Origin: Escherichia coli
GTDB taxonomy: Bacteria > Pseudomonadota > Gammaproteobacteria > Enterobacterales > Enterobacteriaceae
Length of the DNA: 64,000 bases
Assembly: GCF_024298765.1 (NCBI RefSeq)
Contig: NZ_CP101210.1
Reading direction: 5' to 3' (one strand)
Position 1 is the first letter of the stretch, and each line of letters begins with the position of its first letter. Positions 2,686-45,439 of this stretch are shown piece after piece. The notes under the pieces are model-generated. The model saw only the letters and a program-made list of their open reading frames with translations. It had not been told where the DNA came from and did no database searches. The position numbers and the translations under genes are program-made.

Positions 2686-2962
2686 GGTTGTTGTCCTCGT
2701 TGTTCAGTCGTTGCAGCCTGCGCTGTTCCAGTAATTCAATGGCCCGTTTATCCGCGTTACAGGTTTCCAGTGCATCCAGAAGGCGGTCGCCCCATATACC
2801 GAGATTTCCCCATGTGGGAGTGTCAGGGAAGGGGGGAGGCGTTACCGGTATGGTCAGCGTCTGCGGTATAAGCCGGACTGACGGCGCTGGCCGTGGCGCG
2901 TTCTGCGTGCCTGCGCAGCCTGTCAGTAAAACGAGCGTCAGGCAAAGCGTGGGCGCATTCAT
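2672..2962 (-). CDS. o-spanin (LysC/Rz1-like outer-membrane lipoprotein), start at internal Met
   Basis: Signal peptide with lipobox LLTGC; proline-rich; nested out of frame in the 3' part of the i-spanin gene. Confidence 0.6.
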   Translation of the reverse strand: MNAPTLCLTLVLLTGCAGTQNAPRPAPSVRLIPQTLTIPVTPPPFPDTPTWGNLGIWGDRLLDALETCNADKRAIELLEQRRLQRLNNEDNNHAEN

Positions 2963-3230
2963 CTTTTGCAATATCGTTGCGTAGCTGTTCACGTCTTGCC
3001 TCTCCGTCCTGATTGCGTTGCTGATTTTCCACGCGGAGTTGCGCCAGCACCTGCTGCATATCCTGTACCCCGGCGCTAATGATATTCAGGGTGTCGGCGG
3101 TACGTTTCAGGGTGCTGGCCTGCGCTTCGTTTCTGGCGTTCTCCCGGCCCAGCGACCATGACAGACGCATGGATGTTCCCCATGCGGCAATCAGAAGGAA
3201 AGCGACACCCAGCGTGGGCCAGAGCTTCAT
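2823..3230 (-). CDS. i-spanin (LysB/Rz-like), start at internal Met49 of the track ORF
   Basis: ATG at 3230 overlaps the endolysin stop (ATGA); N-terminal TM (LWPTLGVAFLLIAAW) followed by a charged coiled-coil-like region. Confidence 0.6.
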   Translation of the reverse strand: MKLWPTLGVAFLLIAAWGTSMRLSWSLGRENARNEAQASTLKRTADTLNIISAGVQDMQQVLAQLRVENQQRNQDGEARREQLRNDIAKDECAHALPDARFTDRLRRHAERATASAVSPAYTADADHTGNASPLP

Positions 3231-3619
3231 GCCGGATAGACTCCGTGTGGTAACTGAAAATGCGGTCCGTCTTTCAGGGTCTTCCAGTCGCCGCCCCATT
3301 CCACCGGAATATTCAGCTCCCGGCTGGCCTGTCTGAATGCTGCTGCGATTTTTTCGTACAGCGGCCATTCCCATGACACCTGGCTGCCGATATAAGCCAC
3401 AACATCCACGGCATGTCCCGTAAGGTGGCGGCTGTTCATGGTCTGGCTCTTACCTGTGGCCACAAGTTGCTTCTGGCGGTAACGGCTGCGCAACCCTTCG
3501 GTGATACCAAAATCCACTTCCGAAATTTCCAGTGCCCGTCGGGTCACTTTCACCAGATCAGGATTTACGCCCTGCAAATTCTTTTCGCTCCGGCTGCTGA
3601 ATTTAAATGTGTTGCTCAT
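3227..3619 (-). CDS. endolysin, peptidase M15-like (L-Ala-D-Glu / D-Ala-D-Ala peptidase type)
   Basis: 130 aa with SRHLTGHAVDV zinc-peptidase-like motif; sits between holin and spanins. Confidence 0.7.
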   Translation of the reverse strand: MSNTFKFSSRSEKNLQGVNPDLVKVTRRALEISEVDFGITEGLRSRYRQKQLVATGKSQTMNSRHLTGHAVDVVAYIGSQVSWEWPLYEKIAAAFRQASRELNIPVEWGGDWKTLKDGPHFQLPHGVYPA

Positions 3620-3939
3620 TCGTCCTTCTCCTTCCCCCTGCGATTAAAGGCCGCAATAACCTTGTCGCGTGCTTTCTCTGCGCCCATAAAACCGATTGAT
3701 GCGCCGATAAACGTCACGGCATCTTCAGGAAACCCGAAGAAGCGCAACGACCCGGCCACGGCCATGGCAAGAACGCCGCACGCCAGCGATCCCGTTACGG
3801 TCTGAACCAGTGTTCGTCCGTCATAAAGACTCATCAGCGCGGAAATGCTGACTGCCGCGCCTACTGCATACACCGTTGGCAGGTGGTCAAAGAGCCACGC
3901 AATAACCTGCTCTGTGATCCCTGTTTGAATGGTGCTCAC
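3616..3939 (-). CDS. holin (GTG start inferred)
   Basis: GTG at 3939 preceded by GGGAG, 2 nt after X stop; about 108 aa with hydrophobic TM segments and a charged C-terminus; overlaps endolysin start. Confidence 0.55.
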   Translation of the reverse strand: MSTIQTGITEQVIAWLFDHLPTVYAVGAAVSISALMSLYDGRTLVQTVTGSLACGVLAMAVAGSLRFFGFPEDAVTFIGASIGFMGAEKARDKVIAAFNRRGKEKDE

Positions 3940-3941
3940 TG

Positions 3942-4148
3942 CTACTCCCCCCACAACTGAATCATTTCTCGTTTCTTCTTCTCCGGCTCCGGCATCTCCA
4001 CGTCCTGCCCGGCGTCCAGAAATACCTGCTGACAGAGTCCGGGGTTGGCATCCAGCACCTTTTCGGTGACGCCCTGCGTCGTGCCGTAGTACCGGAAACA
4101 GAGCGAATCCACGGTGTCGCCTTCCAGTGCCTTCACTTTCATCAGCAC
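3942..4148 (-). CDS. tail protein X (gpX-like)
   Basis: 68-aa ORF between L and the holin, P2 order L-X-Y. Confidence 0.75.
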   Translation of the reverse strand: MLMKVKALEGDTVDSLCFRYYGTTQGVTEKVLDANPGLCQQVFLDAGQDVEMPEPEKKKREMIQLWGE

Positions 4149-4645
4149 AACTCCGCAAAAATTCGCGGGCGGCGCAGAATGTCAGAGATGGCCCAGCTCA
4201 CATCGCGCCACAAATCCGATGTCTGTATATCCAGTGCGTCCGCCCGGCGGTCGCCCTTATCCGTTGTGTCCGCATCGCGGTAACGCTCCAGAATCAGGGC
4301 GCGTGTGGCGGTATAAACGGCATTGCGCCAGTGCCAGAGATTGACGCTTTCTCCGTTAATTACGGGTGCCGGAACATCGGCCAGCGTCTGATGGCCAGCC
4401 GCCTGCTGTTCCTGCTGCCATGCTTCCAGCTCGCGGGTAACGTGAGCCACCGCCCCGGTGGCGGTATGCAGCAGGCGGGAGGTGGTCACGCGCCCCGGCA
4501 GTCGTACCGCCAGACGCAGCTCACGCAGCACAATATCCGGCCAGAATGCACCCGCTGAAATACGGGTATCACCATCATCGGTATCGGTGATGTCGTCCTC
4601 TGCGGGTCCGGGGTTGGTTCTGGCAACCATACTCATGGGGTTCAC
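4142..4645 (-). CDS. head completion/stabilisation protein (gpL-like)
   Basis: 167-aa ORF following terminase small subunit M as in P2. Confidence 0.8.
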   Translation of the reverse strand: MNPMSMVARTNPGPAEDDITDTDDGDTRISAGAFWPDIVLRELRLAVRLPGRVTTSRLLHTATGAVAHVTRELEAWQQEQQAAGHQTLADVPAPVINGESVNLWHWRNAVYTATRALILERYRDADTTDKGDRRADALDIQTSDLWRDVSWAISDILRRPRIFAELC

Positions 4646-4737
4646 TCCTGAAAAAATCGGGCGGTGGGTGCGCGGTGTAAACGGTCACGGAGTCAAACCG
4701 GAACACCGCGCACGCCGCCCGCTGACGGGGTCAGTCG

Positions 4738-5538
4738 TTAACCGCGCTTCGCCTTCTGCGTCGCGGTGGTTTTTCGTGTTGCAGGCTTCCGCGTTGTCTT
4801 TTTACTTTTGCTGCTTTCGTTCTGCGCCTGTGGTGTGCTGGCATCTTCTGGTGCGGCTGCGGAATCGGCTTTTTTCAGAGCGCGGGAAAGGGTTGCAATC
4901 TCGCGTTTCACACCTGCGTTCGGGTTCAGGTGCATCGCTTCGCGCAGCAGCTTCAGTGATGAGGCCATGCTGTCCGCATCGCTCAGGCTACGGCGGGCAA
5001 AGGCGCACGCCTTGCATAATTTGGCTCGCACTTCGTCCGGCATATCCTGGTTGGCGACAATTTCCCAAAGTGTGTCCAGTGGTTCGATAAAGGCGGACAA
5101 ATCCGCGTCGGCATCCGTCCCGGCCTGCGTCAGTACCGGGTTGCAGATTTCTTCGGTCAGTACCGTGGCAGCAGTACGGCCAAAGTTATCCGGCATGATG
5201 AGGTTGTGACGGACCACATACGCACCAATACGCAGCGCAAGCGGAAGATCGCCGCAGTCAATTGCCCACACCATCAGCGTGGCAATCACTTCATCCTGCT
5301 GCCCGCCGTCAGCCTCCAGCGTTCCCTCAATCCAGCCGGAAAAGTCCGGCAACAACTCTTTTTTGATGGCGGCTTTCGCGCTTCTGGCCTGTACCCCCTT
5401 AAGTCGGGCCTGTGCCAGACGCAGACGATACAGCACCTCTTCATGCGCGGTACGCGCGGCGTGGTCCACGCCTTCATTCGCCCGGCCTGCGCGCTGTGCC
5501 ATCACGTTCTGCCAGTGTTGCTGTGCAGGAGTAATCAT
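4738..5538 (-). CDS. terminase small/endonuclease subunit (gpM-like)
   Basis: 266 aa; N-terminus and MPDEVRAKL segment match the remembered P2 gpM; lysine-rich C-terminal tail. Confidence 0.85.
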   Translation of the reverse strand: MITPAQQHWQNVMAQRAGRANEGVDHAARTAHEEVLYRLRLAQARLKGVQARSAKAAIKKELLPDFSGWIEGTLEADGGQQDEVIATLMVWAIDCGDLPLALRIGAYVVRHNLIMPDNFGRTAATVLTEEICNPVLTQAGTDADADLSAFIEPLDTLWEIVANQDMPDEVRAKLCKACAFARRSLSDADSMASSLKLLREAMHLNPNAGVKREIATLSRALKKADSAAAPEDASTPQAQNESSKSKKTTRKPATRKTTATQKAKRG

Positions 5539-36235: not shown

Positions 36236-39127
<2,892 letters not shown>

Positions 39128-39147
39128 ATGAGTAAAAAGGTAACAAT

Positions 39148-39651
39148 ATGACCGGTATGACGAATGTAACAAAGCTGGCCAGCGAGCCGTCAGGCCAGGA
39201 ATTTCTGGTATTTACCCTTGGTGATGAAGAGTACGGTATTGATATTCTGAAAGTGCAGGAGATCCGTGGCTACGATCAGGTAACACGGATTGCGAACACG
39301 CCAGCGTTTATCAAAGGCGTCACGAATCTGCGCGGTGTTATTGTGCCGATTGTGGACTTACGAATTAAGTTCAGCCAGGTGGATGTGGACTATAACGACA
39401 ACACGGTAGTTATCGTCCTGAATCTCGGACAGCGGGTGGTCGGCATCGTGGTTGACGGCGTCTCAGACGTGCTTTCATTGACGGCGGAGCAAATTCGTCC
39501 GGCACCGGAATTTGCCGTGACGCTTTCAACAGAATATCTCACTGGACTGGGTGCACTGGGCGACCGTATGTTGATTCTGGTGAACATCGAAAAACTGCTG
39601 AACAGCGAAGAGATGGCGCTATTAGATAGCGCGGCGTCAGAAGTGGCGTAA
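39148..39651 (+). CDS. cheW: chemotaxis coupling protein CheW
   Basis: 167-aa ORF after cheA. Confidence 0.95.
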
Positions 39652-39737
39652 TTCTCCCGATTTCCTCAATTGCAATGAACCCGATGATCTGCGCATCGGG
39701 TTTTTTATTTCAGTTTCGCGGCGGGTGGCATCAGCAA

Positions 39738-39764
39738 TAAAGTTTCCCCCTTCCTTGCCGATAA
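39738..39764 (+). promoter_or_regulatory. sigma-28 (FliA) class 3 promoter upstream of tar
   Basis: TAAAGTTT - 15 nt - GCCGATAA matches the sigma-28 consensus TAAA-N15-GCCGATAA. Confidence 0.6.
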
Positions 39765-39795
39765 CGAGATCAACTTGTTTTCAGGAAGGTGCCTT

Positions 39796-41457
39796 ATGAT
39801 TAACCGTATCCGCGTAGTCACGCTGTTGGTAATGGTGCTGGGGGTATTCGCACTGTTACAGCTTATTTCCGGCAGTCTGTTTTTTTCTTCCCTTCACCAT
39901 AGCCAGAAGAGCTTTGTGGTTTCCAATCAATTACGGGAACAGCAGGGCGAGCTGACGTCAACATGGGATTTAATGCTGCAAACGCGCATTAACCTGAGTC
40001 GTTCAGCGGTGCGGATGATGATGGATTCATCCAATCAGCAAAGTAATGCCAAAGTTGAATTGCTCGATAGCGCCAGGAAAACATTGGCCCAGGCAGCGAC
40101 TCATTATAAAAAATTCAAAAGCATGGCACCGTTACCTGAAATGGTCGCTACCAGTCGTAATATTGATGAAAAATATAAAAACTATCACACAGCGTTAACT
40201 GAACTGATTGATTATCTTGATTATGGCAATACTGGAGCTTATTTCGCTCAGCCAACCCAGGGAATGCAAAATGCAATGGGCGAAGCGTTTGCTCAGTACG
40301 CCCTCAGCAGTGAAAAACTGTATCGCGATATCGTCACTGACAACGCAGATGATTACCGATTTGCCCAGTGGCAACTGGCGGTTATCGCGCTGGTGGTGGT
40401 ATTGATTCTGCTGGTGGCGTGGTACGGCATTCGCCGTATGTTGCTTACACCGCTGGCAAAAATTATTGCTCACATTCGCGAAATCGCCGGTGGTAACCTG
40501 GCGAATACCCTGACCATTGACGGGCGCAGTGAAATGGGCGACCTGGCGCAGAGCGTTTCACATATGCAACGCTCTTTGACTGACACCGTCACTCATGTGC
40601 GTGAAGGTTCAGATGCCATCTATGCCGGTACCCGTGAAATTGCGGCGGGCAACACCGATCTTTCCTCCCGTACGGAACAGCAGGCATCCGCGCTGGAAGA
40701 AACTGCCGCCAGCATGGAGCAGCTCACCGCGACAGTGAAGCAAAACGCCGATAACGCCCGCCAGGCCTCGCAACTGGCGCAAAGTGCCTCCGACACCGCC
40801 CAGCACGGCGGCAAAGTGGTGGATGGCGTAGTGAAAACGATGCATGAGATCGCCGATAGTTCGAAGAAAATTGCCGACATTATCAGCGTTATCGATGGTA
40901 TTGCCTTCCAGACTAATATACTCGCGCTGAATGCCGCTGTTGAAGCCGCGCGAGCGGGTGAACAGGGCCGTGGTTTTGCCGTGGTGGCGGGCGAAGTGCG
41001 TAATCTTGCCAGTCGCAGCGCCCAGGCGGCAAAAGAGATCAAAGCCCTCATTGAAGACTCCGTCTCGCGCGTTGATACCGGTTCGGTGCTGGTCGAAAGC
41101 GCCGGGGAAACAATGAACAATATCGTCAATGCTGTCACCCGCGTGACTGACATTATGGGCGAGATTGCATCGGCATCGGATGAACAGAGCCGTGGCATCG
41201 ATCAAGTCGCATTGGCGGTTTCGGAAATGGATCGCGTCACGCAACAGAACGCATCGCTGGTGCAGGAATCAGCTGCCGCCGCAGCTGCGCTGGAAGAACA
41301 GGCGAGTCGTTTAACGCAAGCGGTTTCCGCGTTCCGTCTGGCAGCCAGCCCACTCACCAATAAACCGCAAACACCATCCCGTCCTGCCAGTGAGCAACCA
41401 CCGGCACAGCCACGACTGCGAATTACTGAACAAGATCCAAACTGGGAAACATTTTGA
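39796..41457 (+). CDS. tar: methyl-accepting chemotaxis protein II (aspartate/maltose receptor)
   Basis: Starts [21 protein letters not shown], 553 aa, conserved MCP signalling domain. Confidence 0.95.
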
Positions 41458-41502
41458 CGAGTTTTTACTAACGCGGTCATTGCCGCCTGATGGGGAGCGT
41501 TG

Positions 41503-43104
41503 ATGTTTAATCGTATTCGAATTTCGACCACGCTGTTTTTAATTTTGATTCTCTGCGGGATCTTGCAGATTGGCAGTAACGGCATGTCTTTTTGGGCATT
41601 TCGCGACGATTTGCAACGACTGAATCAGGTCGAGCAGAGCAATCAGCAACGTGCGGCATTAGCGCAAACTCGGGCGGTAATGTTACAGGCCAGTACCGCG
41701 CTGAACAAAGCGGGCACTCTGACGGCGCTTAGCTATCCGGCGGATGACATTAAAACGTTGATGACGACGGCGCGCGCCAGTCTGACGCAATCCACCACGC
41801 TGTTTAAAAGTTTTATGGCGATGACTGCGGGCAACGAGCACGTCAGGGCGTTGCAAAAAGAGACGGAGAAAAGTTTTGCCCGCTGGCACAACGATCTCGA
41901 ACATCAGGCGACCTGGCTTGAAAGTAATCAACTTTCGGATTTCCTCACTGCGCCGGTGCAGGAATCACAGAATGCGTTTGACGTTAACTTTGAGGCCTGG
42001 CAGCTGGAGATCAACCATGTGCTGGAAGCTGCCAGTGCGCAAAGCCAGCGTAACTATCACATTTCGGCGCTGGTGTTTATCAGCATGATTATTGTTGCAG
42101 CGCTCTACATCAGCAGTGCGCTGTGGTGGACGCGCAAGATGATTGTTCAACCACTGGCCATCATCGGTAGCCATTTTGACAGCATTGCTGCGGGTAATCT
42201 GGCGCGTCCGATTGCAGTGTATGGTCGCAATGAGATCACCGCCATTTTTGCCAGTCTGAAGACCATGCAGCAGGCTTTGCGTGGGACGGTAAGTGATGTG
42301 CGTAAGGGAAGCCAGGAGATGCACATTGGTATCGCGGAGATTGTCGCAGGCAATAACGATCTCTCAAGTCGTACCGAACAGCAGGCGGCATCGCTGGCAC
42401 AAACGGCCGCCAGTATGGAGCAATTAACCGCCACGGTAGGGCAAAACGCCGATAACGCACGACAGGCGTCGGAACTGGCAAAAAATGCCGCGACAACGGC
42501 GCAGGCGGGCGGTGTTCAGGTCAGTACCATGACTCACACCATGCAGGAGATCGCCACCAGCTCGCAAAAAATTGGCGACATTATCAGCGTTATCGACGGC
42601 ATTGCTTTCCAGACCAATATTCTGGCCCTGAATGCGGCAGTGGAAGCGGCTCGCGCCGGAGAGCAGGGGCGTGGTTTTGCGGTAGTGGCAGGTGAAGTGC
42701 GCAATCTTGCCAGCCGTAGCGCCCAGGCAGCAAAAGAGATCAAAGGGCTGATCGAAGAGTCAGTCAATCGTGTCCAGCAGGGTTCGAAACTGGTGAATAA
42801 CGCCGCCGCGACCATGACCGATATTGTCAGTTCGGTGACCCGCGTGAACGACATTATGGGAGAAATTGCTTCGGCGTCGGAAGAACAATGGCGGGGGATT
42901 GAGCAGGTTGCACAGGCTGTCAGCCAGATGGATCAGGTGACTCAGCAGAACGCCTCGCTGGTAGAAGAAGCGGCGGCGGCAACGGAACAACTGGCGAACC
43001 AGGCTGACCATCTTTCGTCGCGTGTGGCGGTATTTACCCTTGAAGAACATGAAGTAGCACGACATGAGTCGGCGCAGTTACATATTGCGCCAGTGGTATC
43101 CTGA
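41503..43104 (+). CDS. tap: methyl-accepting chemotaxis protein IV (dipeptide/pyrimidine receptor)
   Basis: Starts MFNRIRISTTLFLILILCG, 533 aa, directly downstream of tar. Confidence 0.9.
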   Translation: MFNRIRISTTLFLILILCGILQIGSNGMSFWAFRDDLQRLNQVEQSNQQRAALAQTRAVMLQASTALNKAGTLTALSYPADDIKTLMTTARASLTQSTTLFKSFMAMTAGNEHVRALQKETEKSFARWHNDLEHQATWLESNQLSDFLTAPVQESQNAFDVNFEAWQLEINHVLEAASAQSQRNYHISALVFISMIIVAALYISSALWWTRKMIVQPLAIIGSHFDSIAAGNLARPIAVYGRNEITAIFASLKTMQQALRGTVSDVRKGSQEMHIGIAEIVAGNNDLSSRTEQQAASLAQTAASMEQLTATVGQNADNARQASELAKNAATTAQAGGVQVSTMTHTMQEIATSSQKIGDIISVIDGIAFQTNILALNAAVEAARAGEQGRGFAVVAGEVRNLASRSAQAAKEIKGLIEESVNRVQQGSKLVNNAAATMTDIVSSVTRVNDIMGEIASASEEQWRGIEQVAQAVSQMDQVTQQNASLVEEAAAATEQLANQADHLSSRVAVFTLEEHEVARHESAQLHIAPVVS

Positions 43105-43122
43105 AGTGATTGAGAAGGCGCT

Positions 43123-43983
43123 ATGACTTCATCTCTGCCCTGTGGGCAAACGTCTTTATTGTTACAGATGACCGAGCGCCTGGCGCTTTCCGACGCGCAT
43201 TTTCGGCGGATAAGTCAATTGATCTATCAACGAGCCGGGATCGTTCTGGCTGACCATAAACGCGACATGGTTTACAACCGACTGGTTCGTCGTTTGCGTT
43301 CGCTGGGACTGACGGATTTCGGCCATTACCTGAACTTGCTGGAATCTAATCAGCACAGCGGTGAGTGGCAGGCGTTTATCAATTCGCTGACCACGAATCT
43401 GACGGCTTTTTTCCGTGAGGCGCATCATTTTCCTCTGCTCGCGGATCACGCCCGGCGTCGTTCTGGCGAGTATCGCGTATGGAGCGCGGCGGCTTCGACC
43501 GGCGAAGAGCCGTACAGCATTGCGATGACGCTGGCTGACACATTGGGCACCGTGCCCGGACGCTGGAAAGTGTTTGCCAGTGATATCGACACCGAAGTGC
43601 TGGAAAAAGCCAGAAGCGGTATTTATCGCCATGAAGAGTTGAAAAACCTGACGCCGCAGCAACTGCAGCGGTACTTCATGCGAGGGACGGGACCGCATGA
43701 AGGGCTGGTACGCGTGCGTCAGGAGCTGGCGAACTATGTTGATTTTGCCCCGCTGAATTTACTGGCGAAACAGTACACCGTGCCGGGGCCGTTTGATGCG
43801 ATCTTCTGTCGTAACGTCATGATCTACTTCGATCAAACTACCCAGCAGGAGATTTTGCGCCGCTTTGTTCCGCTCCTTAAACCCGACGGATTGCTGTTTG
43901 CGGGTCACTCTGAAAACTTTAGCCACCTTGAGCGCCGCTTCACGCTGCGTGGTCAGACGGTGTATGCGCTAAGTAAGGATTAA
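43123..43983 (+). CDS. cheR: chemotaxis protein methyltransferase CheR
   Basis: 286-aa ORF in conserved position. Confidence 0.95.
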
Positions 43984-43985
43984 CG

Positions 43986-45439
<1,454 letters not shown>

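Follow-up and report, generated by a model that had tools for sequence, protein, structure and literature searches.

We analyzed a 64,000-nucleotide (nt) stretch of DNA from Escherichia coli (RefSeq assembly GCF_024298765.1, contig NZ_CP101210.1), which we will call the window. It contains the E. coli motAB-cheAW-tar-tap-cheRBYZ cluster, and our subject is the pair of neighboring chemoreceptor genes, tar and tap, and the deletions that fuse them. Both genes are on the + strand. tar (39796-41457) encodes methyl-accepting chemotaxis protein II (553 amino acids) and tap (41503-43104) encodes methyl-accepting chemotaxis protein IV (533 amino acids). The gene names given by the first-pass annotation, which was made from the sequence alone, agree with RefSeq: positions 39700-43200 are a 100% match to strain 13P477T (NZ_CP019273.1), in which RefSeq annotates cheA, cheW, tar, tap, cheR, cheB, cheY, and cheZ. 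The coordinates of both genes were mapped from that record.

Tar and Tap have the same arrangement of Pfam domains. The N-terminal four-helix-bundle ligand-binding domain (TarH, PF02203) was found in Tar (E = 2.3e-41) and in Tap (E = 3e-42); HAMP (PF00672) had E = 1.6e-11 and 4.5e-10, respectively; and MCPsignal (PF00015) had E = 5.2e-63 and 1.2e-56, with the entire profile (1-172) covered. In both proteins, all three domains score well above their curated cut-offs. The C-termini differ. Tar ends in DPNWETF, with the NWETF motif of high-abundance receptors, and the low-abundance Tap ends in IAPVVS and does not have it. The putative methyl-accepting positions are Q295, E302, Q309, and E491 in Tar, and their equivalents in Tap are Q293, Q300, Q307, and E489.

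The first-pass annotation described long near-identical stretches in the signaling-domain regions of the two genes and quoted a motif from them. The motif is present in both: the 20-mer GACATTATCAGCGTTATCGA has exactly two copies within 39001-44000, at 40876 in tar and at 42577 in tap, and downstream of it is TTCCAGAC, at 40906 and at 42607. But the quoted stretch of 38 nt has 3 mismatches between tar and tap, and near-identity overstates the overall similarity. A repeat search found two families, D1 and D2 (300 and 185 nt), with a common spacing of 1701 nt, so tar and tap are in ungapped register. The tar copy of the homologous signaling-domain segment (40627-41136, + strand, or Tar residues ~278-447) and the tap copy (42328-42837, + strand) are identical at 374 of 510 positions (73.3%). 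Across 40560-41259, the identity to the tap counterpart is 71.6%, and the most similar windows of 90 nt are 80-86% identical.

The longest exact run is 21 nt (40875-40895 in tar and 42576-42596 in tap, + strand), followed by runs of 18 nt (40740-40757 and 42441-42458, + strand) and 16 nt (41029-41044 and 42730-42745). Besides these islands, there are many exact identities of 7-11 nt in register. A shared word of 21 nt is far above chance: in 200 shuffles, the longest shared word averaged 10.4 nt and was at most 15 nt. Comparing the two genes to each other thus upholds in-register homology at an offset of 1701 nt, far beyond chance, and does not uphold near-identity. We would describe them as 73% homeologous, with exact islands of 24 nt or less.

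The longest island, which holds the quoted motif, varies in length across strains. At position 40896, T is found in the window strain and in 2 of the 10 other tar alleles sampled; most alleles have C, which is also the tap base. With C at this position, the island is 24 nt (40875-40898) rather than 21 nt, and this is the form in most strains. We also noticed short inverted repeats (I1-I13) in this region; with an imperfect complementarity of 71-93%, they were put down to chance.

Why are tar and tap similar? By codon position, they are 84%, 85%, and 52% identical at positions 1, 2, and 3. The identity of only 52% at position 3 implies that synonymous sites are heavily diverged. Where the residue is identical, the codon is also identical in roughly 40-70% of cases; since the same residue is often encoded by a different codon, the similarity is carried by the protein. 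As controls, we took the paralogs tsr, trg, and aer from MG1655, and we made the comparison over the same 170 codons. In those codons, tar and tap have 73% nucleotide identity, 52% identity at position 3, and a longest exact run of 21 nt; the corresponding values are 76%, 51%, and 28 nt for tar and tsr, and 71%, 48%, and 23 nt for tar and trg. The likeness of tar to tap lies at codon positions 1 and 2 and is no greater than its likeness to tsr or trg, so attributing it to paralog conservation, as the first-pass annotation did, was correct.

Although tsr is megabases away from tar, it is at least as similar to tar as tap is. Since an unlinked gene matches tar as well as its neighbor does, adjacency has not homogenized tar and tap. 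The longest exact run between tar and tsr (28 nt; tar 41088-41115 and nt 1299-1326 of MG1655 tsr, in locus L006) exceeds every run shared by tar and tap, which again implies that the similarity of tar to tap is not special. In principle, this run is a site for ectopic recombination. tsr and trg thus resemble tar in the same way, and about as closely, as tap does. What sets tap apart is its position: of these genes, it alone lies next to tar in direct register, and only there would an exchange give a viable small deletion.

One alternative to protein constraint is that gene conversion between the neighbors keeps or refreshes the similarity (concerted evolution). tar and tap are well placed for this: they are neighbors, they point the same way, and their register is exact. 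Also, two tar polymorphisms that are just 3 nt apart, at 40599 and 40602, have minor alleles that match the tap base (in 3 and 2 of 11 alleles, respectively). These could be due to chance or to a very short conversion patch; the local identity of tar and tap is only ~55%. But gene conversion does not explain why tar and tap are no more alike at codon position 3 than tar and the unlinked tsr (0.52 versus 0.51), or why tar and tsr are more alike overall. Polymorphism data from 11 tar and 10 tap alleles, which is a small sample, also give no sign of it. We considered a site to be informative if it is polymorphic and the paralog differs from the major allele; at 12 of the 33 informative sites, the minor allele matches the paralog, as compared to the 11 (one third) expected (P = 0.42). 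Finally, aside from the deletion fusions described below, 5,426 complete E. coli genomes contain no long tap-into-tar or tar-into-tap tracts. Gene conversion, which the first-pass annotation had raised, is therefore very improbable as what maintains the similarity. Given that tar and tsr are equally similar and that the polymorphisms show no excess of paralog bases, we conclude that, within this small sample of alleles, there is no detectable gene conversion, and that the similarity probably reflects family-wide constraint on the protein.

The first-pass annotation also proposed that the similarity is a substrate for deletions between tar and tap. We searched for natural fusions with a chimeric query of 800 nt, in which tar 40496-40895 is followed by tap 42597-42996, and compared it to the 5,426 complete genomes with megablast. 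Normal genomes align to this query at 96% coverage and 88.3% identity, and no non-fusion record exceeds 88.3%. Three genomes align at 100% coverage and with higher identity: ET474 (98.6%), PEC389 (98.6%), and ETEC4088 (93.7%). These complete chromosomes come from a frog in China, a pig in Korea, and a pig in Belgium.

Between cheW and cheR, each of these genomes has a single coding sequence of 1608 nt (2801-4408 of loci L003, L004, and L005). (In the window, cheR is at 43123-43983 on the + strand, directly 3' of tap; in the fusion strains, it is directly 3' of the fusion gene.) The length of 1608 nt is the span from the tar start to the tap stop minus 1701 nt, so the fusion is in frame and exactly one repeat period has been lost. 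The adjacent che genes are annotated as intact in all three genomes.

To map the junctions, we relied on 764 diagnostic sites at which every sampled tar allele differs from every sampled tap allele. In the fusions from complete genomes, all 764 sites are concordant with a single switch from tar-type to tap-type. ET474 and PEC389 (L003 and L004) have identical alleles, and their switch lies within 40875-40898, which is the island with the quoted motif. In ETEC4088 (L005), the switch lies within 40740-40757, which is the second-longest island. The junctions in complete genomes thus favor the longest islands: with crossover positions spread evenly across the surveyed 800 nt, two events would both land in the two longest islands with a probability of about 0.003. 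The deletion that was predicted is thereby documented in wild strains, and at the very motif that had been flagged.

The reciprocal tap'-'tar chimeric query gave no record above the score of normal genomes in the 5,426 complete genomes. This does not count against the mechanism, because no reciprocal product is required when a deletion is intramolecular or arises by slippage.

RefSeq's annotation pipeline (PGAP) labels the hybrid simply as "tar: methyl-accepting chemotaxis protein II." Comparative surveys of receptor repertoires that depend on such labels would not see that the gene is chimeric, that tap is gone, or that the NWETF tether is missing.

Fusions are also present in other public assemblies. 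The public protein collection has the two fusion proteins of the complete genomes on 71 and 28 contigs, and their alleles are in 140 and 58 index blocks. Every context that we retrieved is cheA-cheW-fusion-cheR-cheB-cheY-cheZ, and the sampled carriers of the commoner allele share the junction in the 24-nt island, where the most frequent natural fusion has its crossover. One draft carrier of this fusion (L021) has cheR called as two open reading frames, of 210 and 89 amino acids (4127-4986), which suggests a frameshift or a stop codon in that isolate.

We also predicted the hybrid proteins that would arise at other in-register identity runs, given a K-12-like allelic background, and looked up 10 of them by exact sequence. 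Four of the 10 exist exactly in the protein collection, and the DNA of their contigs partitions perfectly at the 764 sites. One of these, from SRR23529899 (L022), again has its junction within 40740-40757; across the locus, it differs from L005 at 29 of 6,608 positions. L023 switches within an 8-nt identity at 40705-40712 (42406-42413 on the tap side, + strand), and L025 switches within another 8-nt identity at 41245-41252 (42946-42953 on the tap side, + strand). The junction of L024 is at 40867-40873, a 7-nt identity that immediately adjoins the 24-nt island. L024 is just one diagnostic site apart from L003, so it may be the same event plus one extra change. In total, the six loci that we analyzed have switch intervals of 24, 18, 18, 8, 7, and 8 nt of exact identity, each with 764 of 764 sites concordant, and there are at least four distinct junction intervals. 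The proposal that tar and tap form a substrate for deletion is thus borne out by natural fusions with crossovers in the quoted motif and in the next-longest island, and by further types elsewhere. The substrate itself is a set of 18-24-nt identity islands set in 73% homeologous DNA, although a few events used identities of 7-8 nt, and the events are rare (3 of 5,426 complete genomes).

Because fusions are rare and several of the carriers are draft assemblies or short-read assemblies from Logan, we considered whether they might be artefacts of sequencing or assembly, such as the collapse of the two paralogs. Similarly, Tar-Tap hybrids have reportedly been engineered in the laboratory (Weerasuriya 1998), so the fusions might be engineered constructs. 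It is hardly credible that either accounts for the fusions. Three of the carriers are complete chromosomes, from a frog and two pigs, and many independent assemblies carry one or the other of these alleles (the 140 and 58 index blocks mentioned above). At the junctions, tar and tap share words of 7-24 nt, below the k-mer length that assemblers typically use, and the two copies differ at 27% of positions, which makes collapse implausible. The diagnostic sites also partition perfectly (764 of 764). As for a laboratory origin, none of the seven carriers that we compared has flanks identical to those of MG1655, which argues against engineering; on the same grounds, we rejected the idea that the carriers are K-12 laboratory strains, though several of them are close to MG1655.

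Taken together, we think it very likely that tar and tap are old tandem paralogs that are under constraint at the protein level, that they are not detectably homogenized, and that they occasionally lose exactly one repeat period by deletion at short islands of identity. Under this model, both genes would be old members of the enterobacterial family of methyl-accepting chemotaxis proteins. Their signaling domains would have been kept ~76% identical in protein sequence because each receptor must fit the CheA/CheW/CheR/CheB machinery, and this constraint on the protein would leave the DNA ~73% identical, with diverged synonymous sites. A rare crossover or slipped misalignment at an exact island would then remove one 1701-nt period. 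The product would have the sensor, transmembrane segments, and HAMP domain of Tar, usually with the first methylation helix as well, joined to the distal part of Tap's signaling domain and its NWETF-less C-terminus.

The observed hybrids have this form. Their junctions are at Tar residues 304-306, 315-321, 358-368, and 484-486, and every hybrid retains Tar's sensor, transmembrane segments, and HAMP, has the tail of Tap without NWETF, and has lost Tap's sensor. From this architecture, we infer that carriers would lose Tap-mediated taxis and would sense aspartate and maltose via a Tap-type output that lacks the tether for CheR and CheB.

Several points weigh against this model or limit it. Events at identities of 7-8 nt do exist, so long identity is not strictly needed. 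Also, our look-up could detect only in-frame, in-register hybrids in a K-12-like background, so the spectrum of junctions is biased. And the number of independent events is uncertain, as L024 and L003 are one site apart and L005 and L022 share a junction interval.

Which pathway would produce a deletion at such islands? Shen and Huang reportedly found, in 1986, that RecA-dependent exchange has a minimal efficient processing segment of ~23-27 bp. RecA-independent slipped misalignment between close repeats is said to have been described by Lovett and colleagues in the 1990s. Like other short-homology deletions in E. coli, the tar-tap deletions have their junctions in exact islands (the longest ones, in the complete genomes), between copies that are 1.7 kb apart. 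They differ in that the islands are embedded in sequence with 27% divergence; if mismatch repair is active, such divergence should make RecA-dependent exchange far less frequent. The pathway would be either homeologous exchange that depends on RecA and works close to the minimal processing segment, or slippage without RecA between repeats that are 1.7 kb apart.

Hybrids of these genes are not new. The paralogy of tar and tap and the formation of hybrids between them are textbook chemotaxis genetics. Slocum, Halden, and Parkinson are said to have found, in 1987, that many spontaneous tar-tap deletions come from recombination between the homologous regions that encode the C-termini, and the resulting Tar-Tap hybrid transducers reportedly had the specificity of Tar and impaired signaling. 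The wild isolates described here have the same architecture as is reported for those fusions, with the N-terminal part from Tar and the C-terminal part from Tap. In contrast to those fusions, which were in laboratory K-12, ours are from animal isolates and public surveillance assemblies, and their junctions are mapped to the nucleotide.

In 1998, Weerasuriya, Schneider, and Manson reportedly engineered Tar-Tap ("Tarp") and Tap-Tar ("Tapr") chimeras and are said to have ascribed the weak clockwise signaling of Tap to its cytoplasmic domain. The natural hybrids resemble Tarp in that both combine Tar's sensing module with Tap's cytoplasmic output and lack the NWETF tether. However, the joints of the engineered chimeras were reportedly in the linker or HAMP, whereas the natural joints are further along, at the four sets of Tar residues given above. 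A search of the searchable literature, which did not cover Borziak 2013 and Lane 2006, turned up no account of tar-tap fusions arising outside the laboratory. Natural fusions with mapped junctions, in wild isolates, are possibly the sole new element here.

A far more common loss of tap has a different origin. Coverage of the tar-tap query falls below 80% in about 1,100 of 5,425 genomes. In the main low-coverage class (61%), which includes Nissle 1917 and O25:H4 strains, tar is intact and the first 131 nt of tap are kept. These genomes lack a 1,362-nt segment inside tap (41634-42995, + strand). The junction is at an imperfect microhomology of ~19 nt, AACGACTGAATCAGGTCGA versus AACTGGCGAACCAGGCTGA (~4422-4433 of L001), and with a junction-spanning query, we found the same junction in 1,059 of the 5,426 complete genomes, at 99% identity or above. 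Because this deletion is internal to tap and has a microhomology junction, we ruled out homology between tar and tap as the cause of the common tap loss. RefSeq annotates the remnant of tap as a pseudogene, "Tar ligand binding domain-containing protein."

The deletion in 1,059 genomes fits what is known of Tap's distribution: according to passages in two articles (PMC3559539 and PMC12623472), which cite Lane et al. 2006 and Borziak et al. 2013, Tap is absent from phylogroup B2 or uropathogenic E. coli. The B2-type deletion and the fusions affect the same locus and both remove the function of Tap. But the former is an intragenic deletion of 1,362 nt at an imperfect microhomology and leaves tar intact, whereas the fusions remove 1701 nt via the homology of tar and tap.

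Given that tap was independently lost in ~20% of genomes, might the fusions be a selected remodeling of the receptor repertoire, parallel to the B2 loss, in which Tap sensing is lost and Tar becomes tether-less? The junctions are recurrent (at least four distinct intervals), two of the alleles have spread to dozens of assemblies, and the neighboring che genes are annotated as intact in the three complete genomes. We still consider selection to be unlikely. The fusions are very rare (3 of 5,426), the numbers of assemblies may reflect clonal sampling, one carrier (L021) has the split cheR, and the laboratory hybrids of 1987 were reportedly defective in signaling. More speculatively, natural lineages may repeatedly make in-frame Tar-Tap hybrids at short islands and may have propagated at least two of them, and besides the intragenic deletion of B2, this might be a second selected route to drop Tap sensing and retune the output of Tar; we doubt this as well.

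Two features of tap alleles are also worth mentioning. At residue 463 of Tap (42889-42891), the window has TGG (Trp), while the 9 other sampled alleles have CAG or CGG. Within this sample, Trp463 is specific to the window strain, and it lies in the conserved SASEEQ(Q/W)RGIEQ segment of the second methylation helix. In strain 2313 (L011), a 3-nt insertion in the part of tap that encodes the periplasmic domain (equivalent to ~41888) gives a tap gene of 1605 nt, and two further records align to the tar-tap query over 3504 nt instead of 3501.

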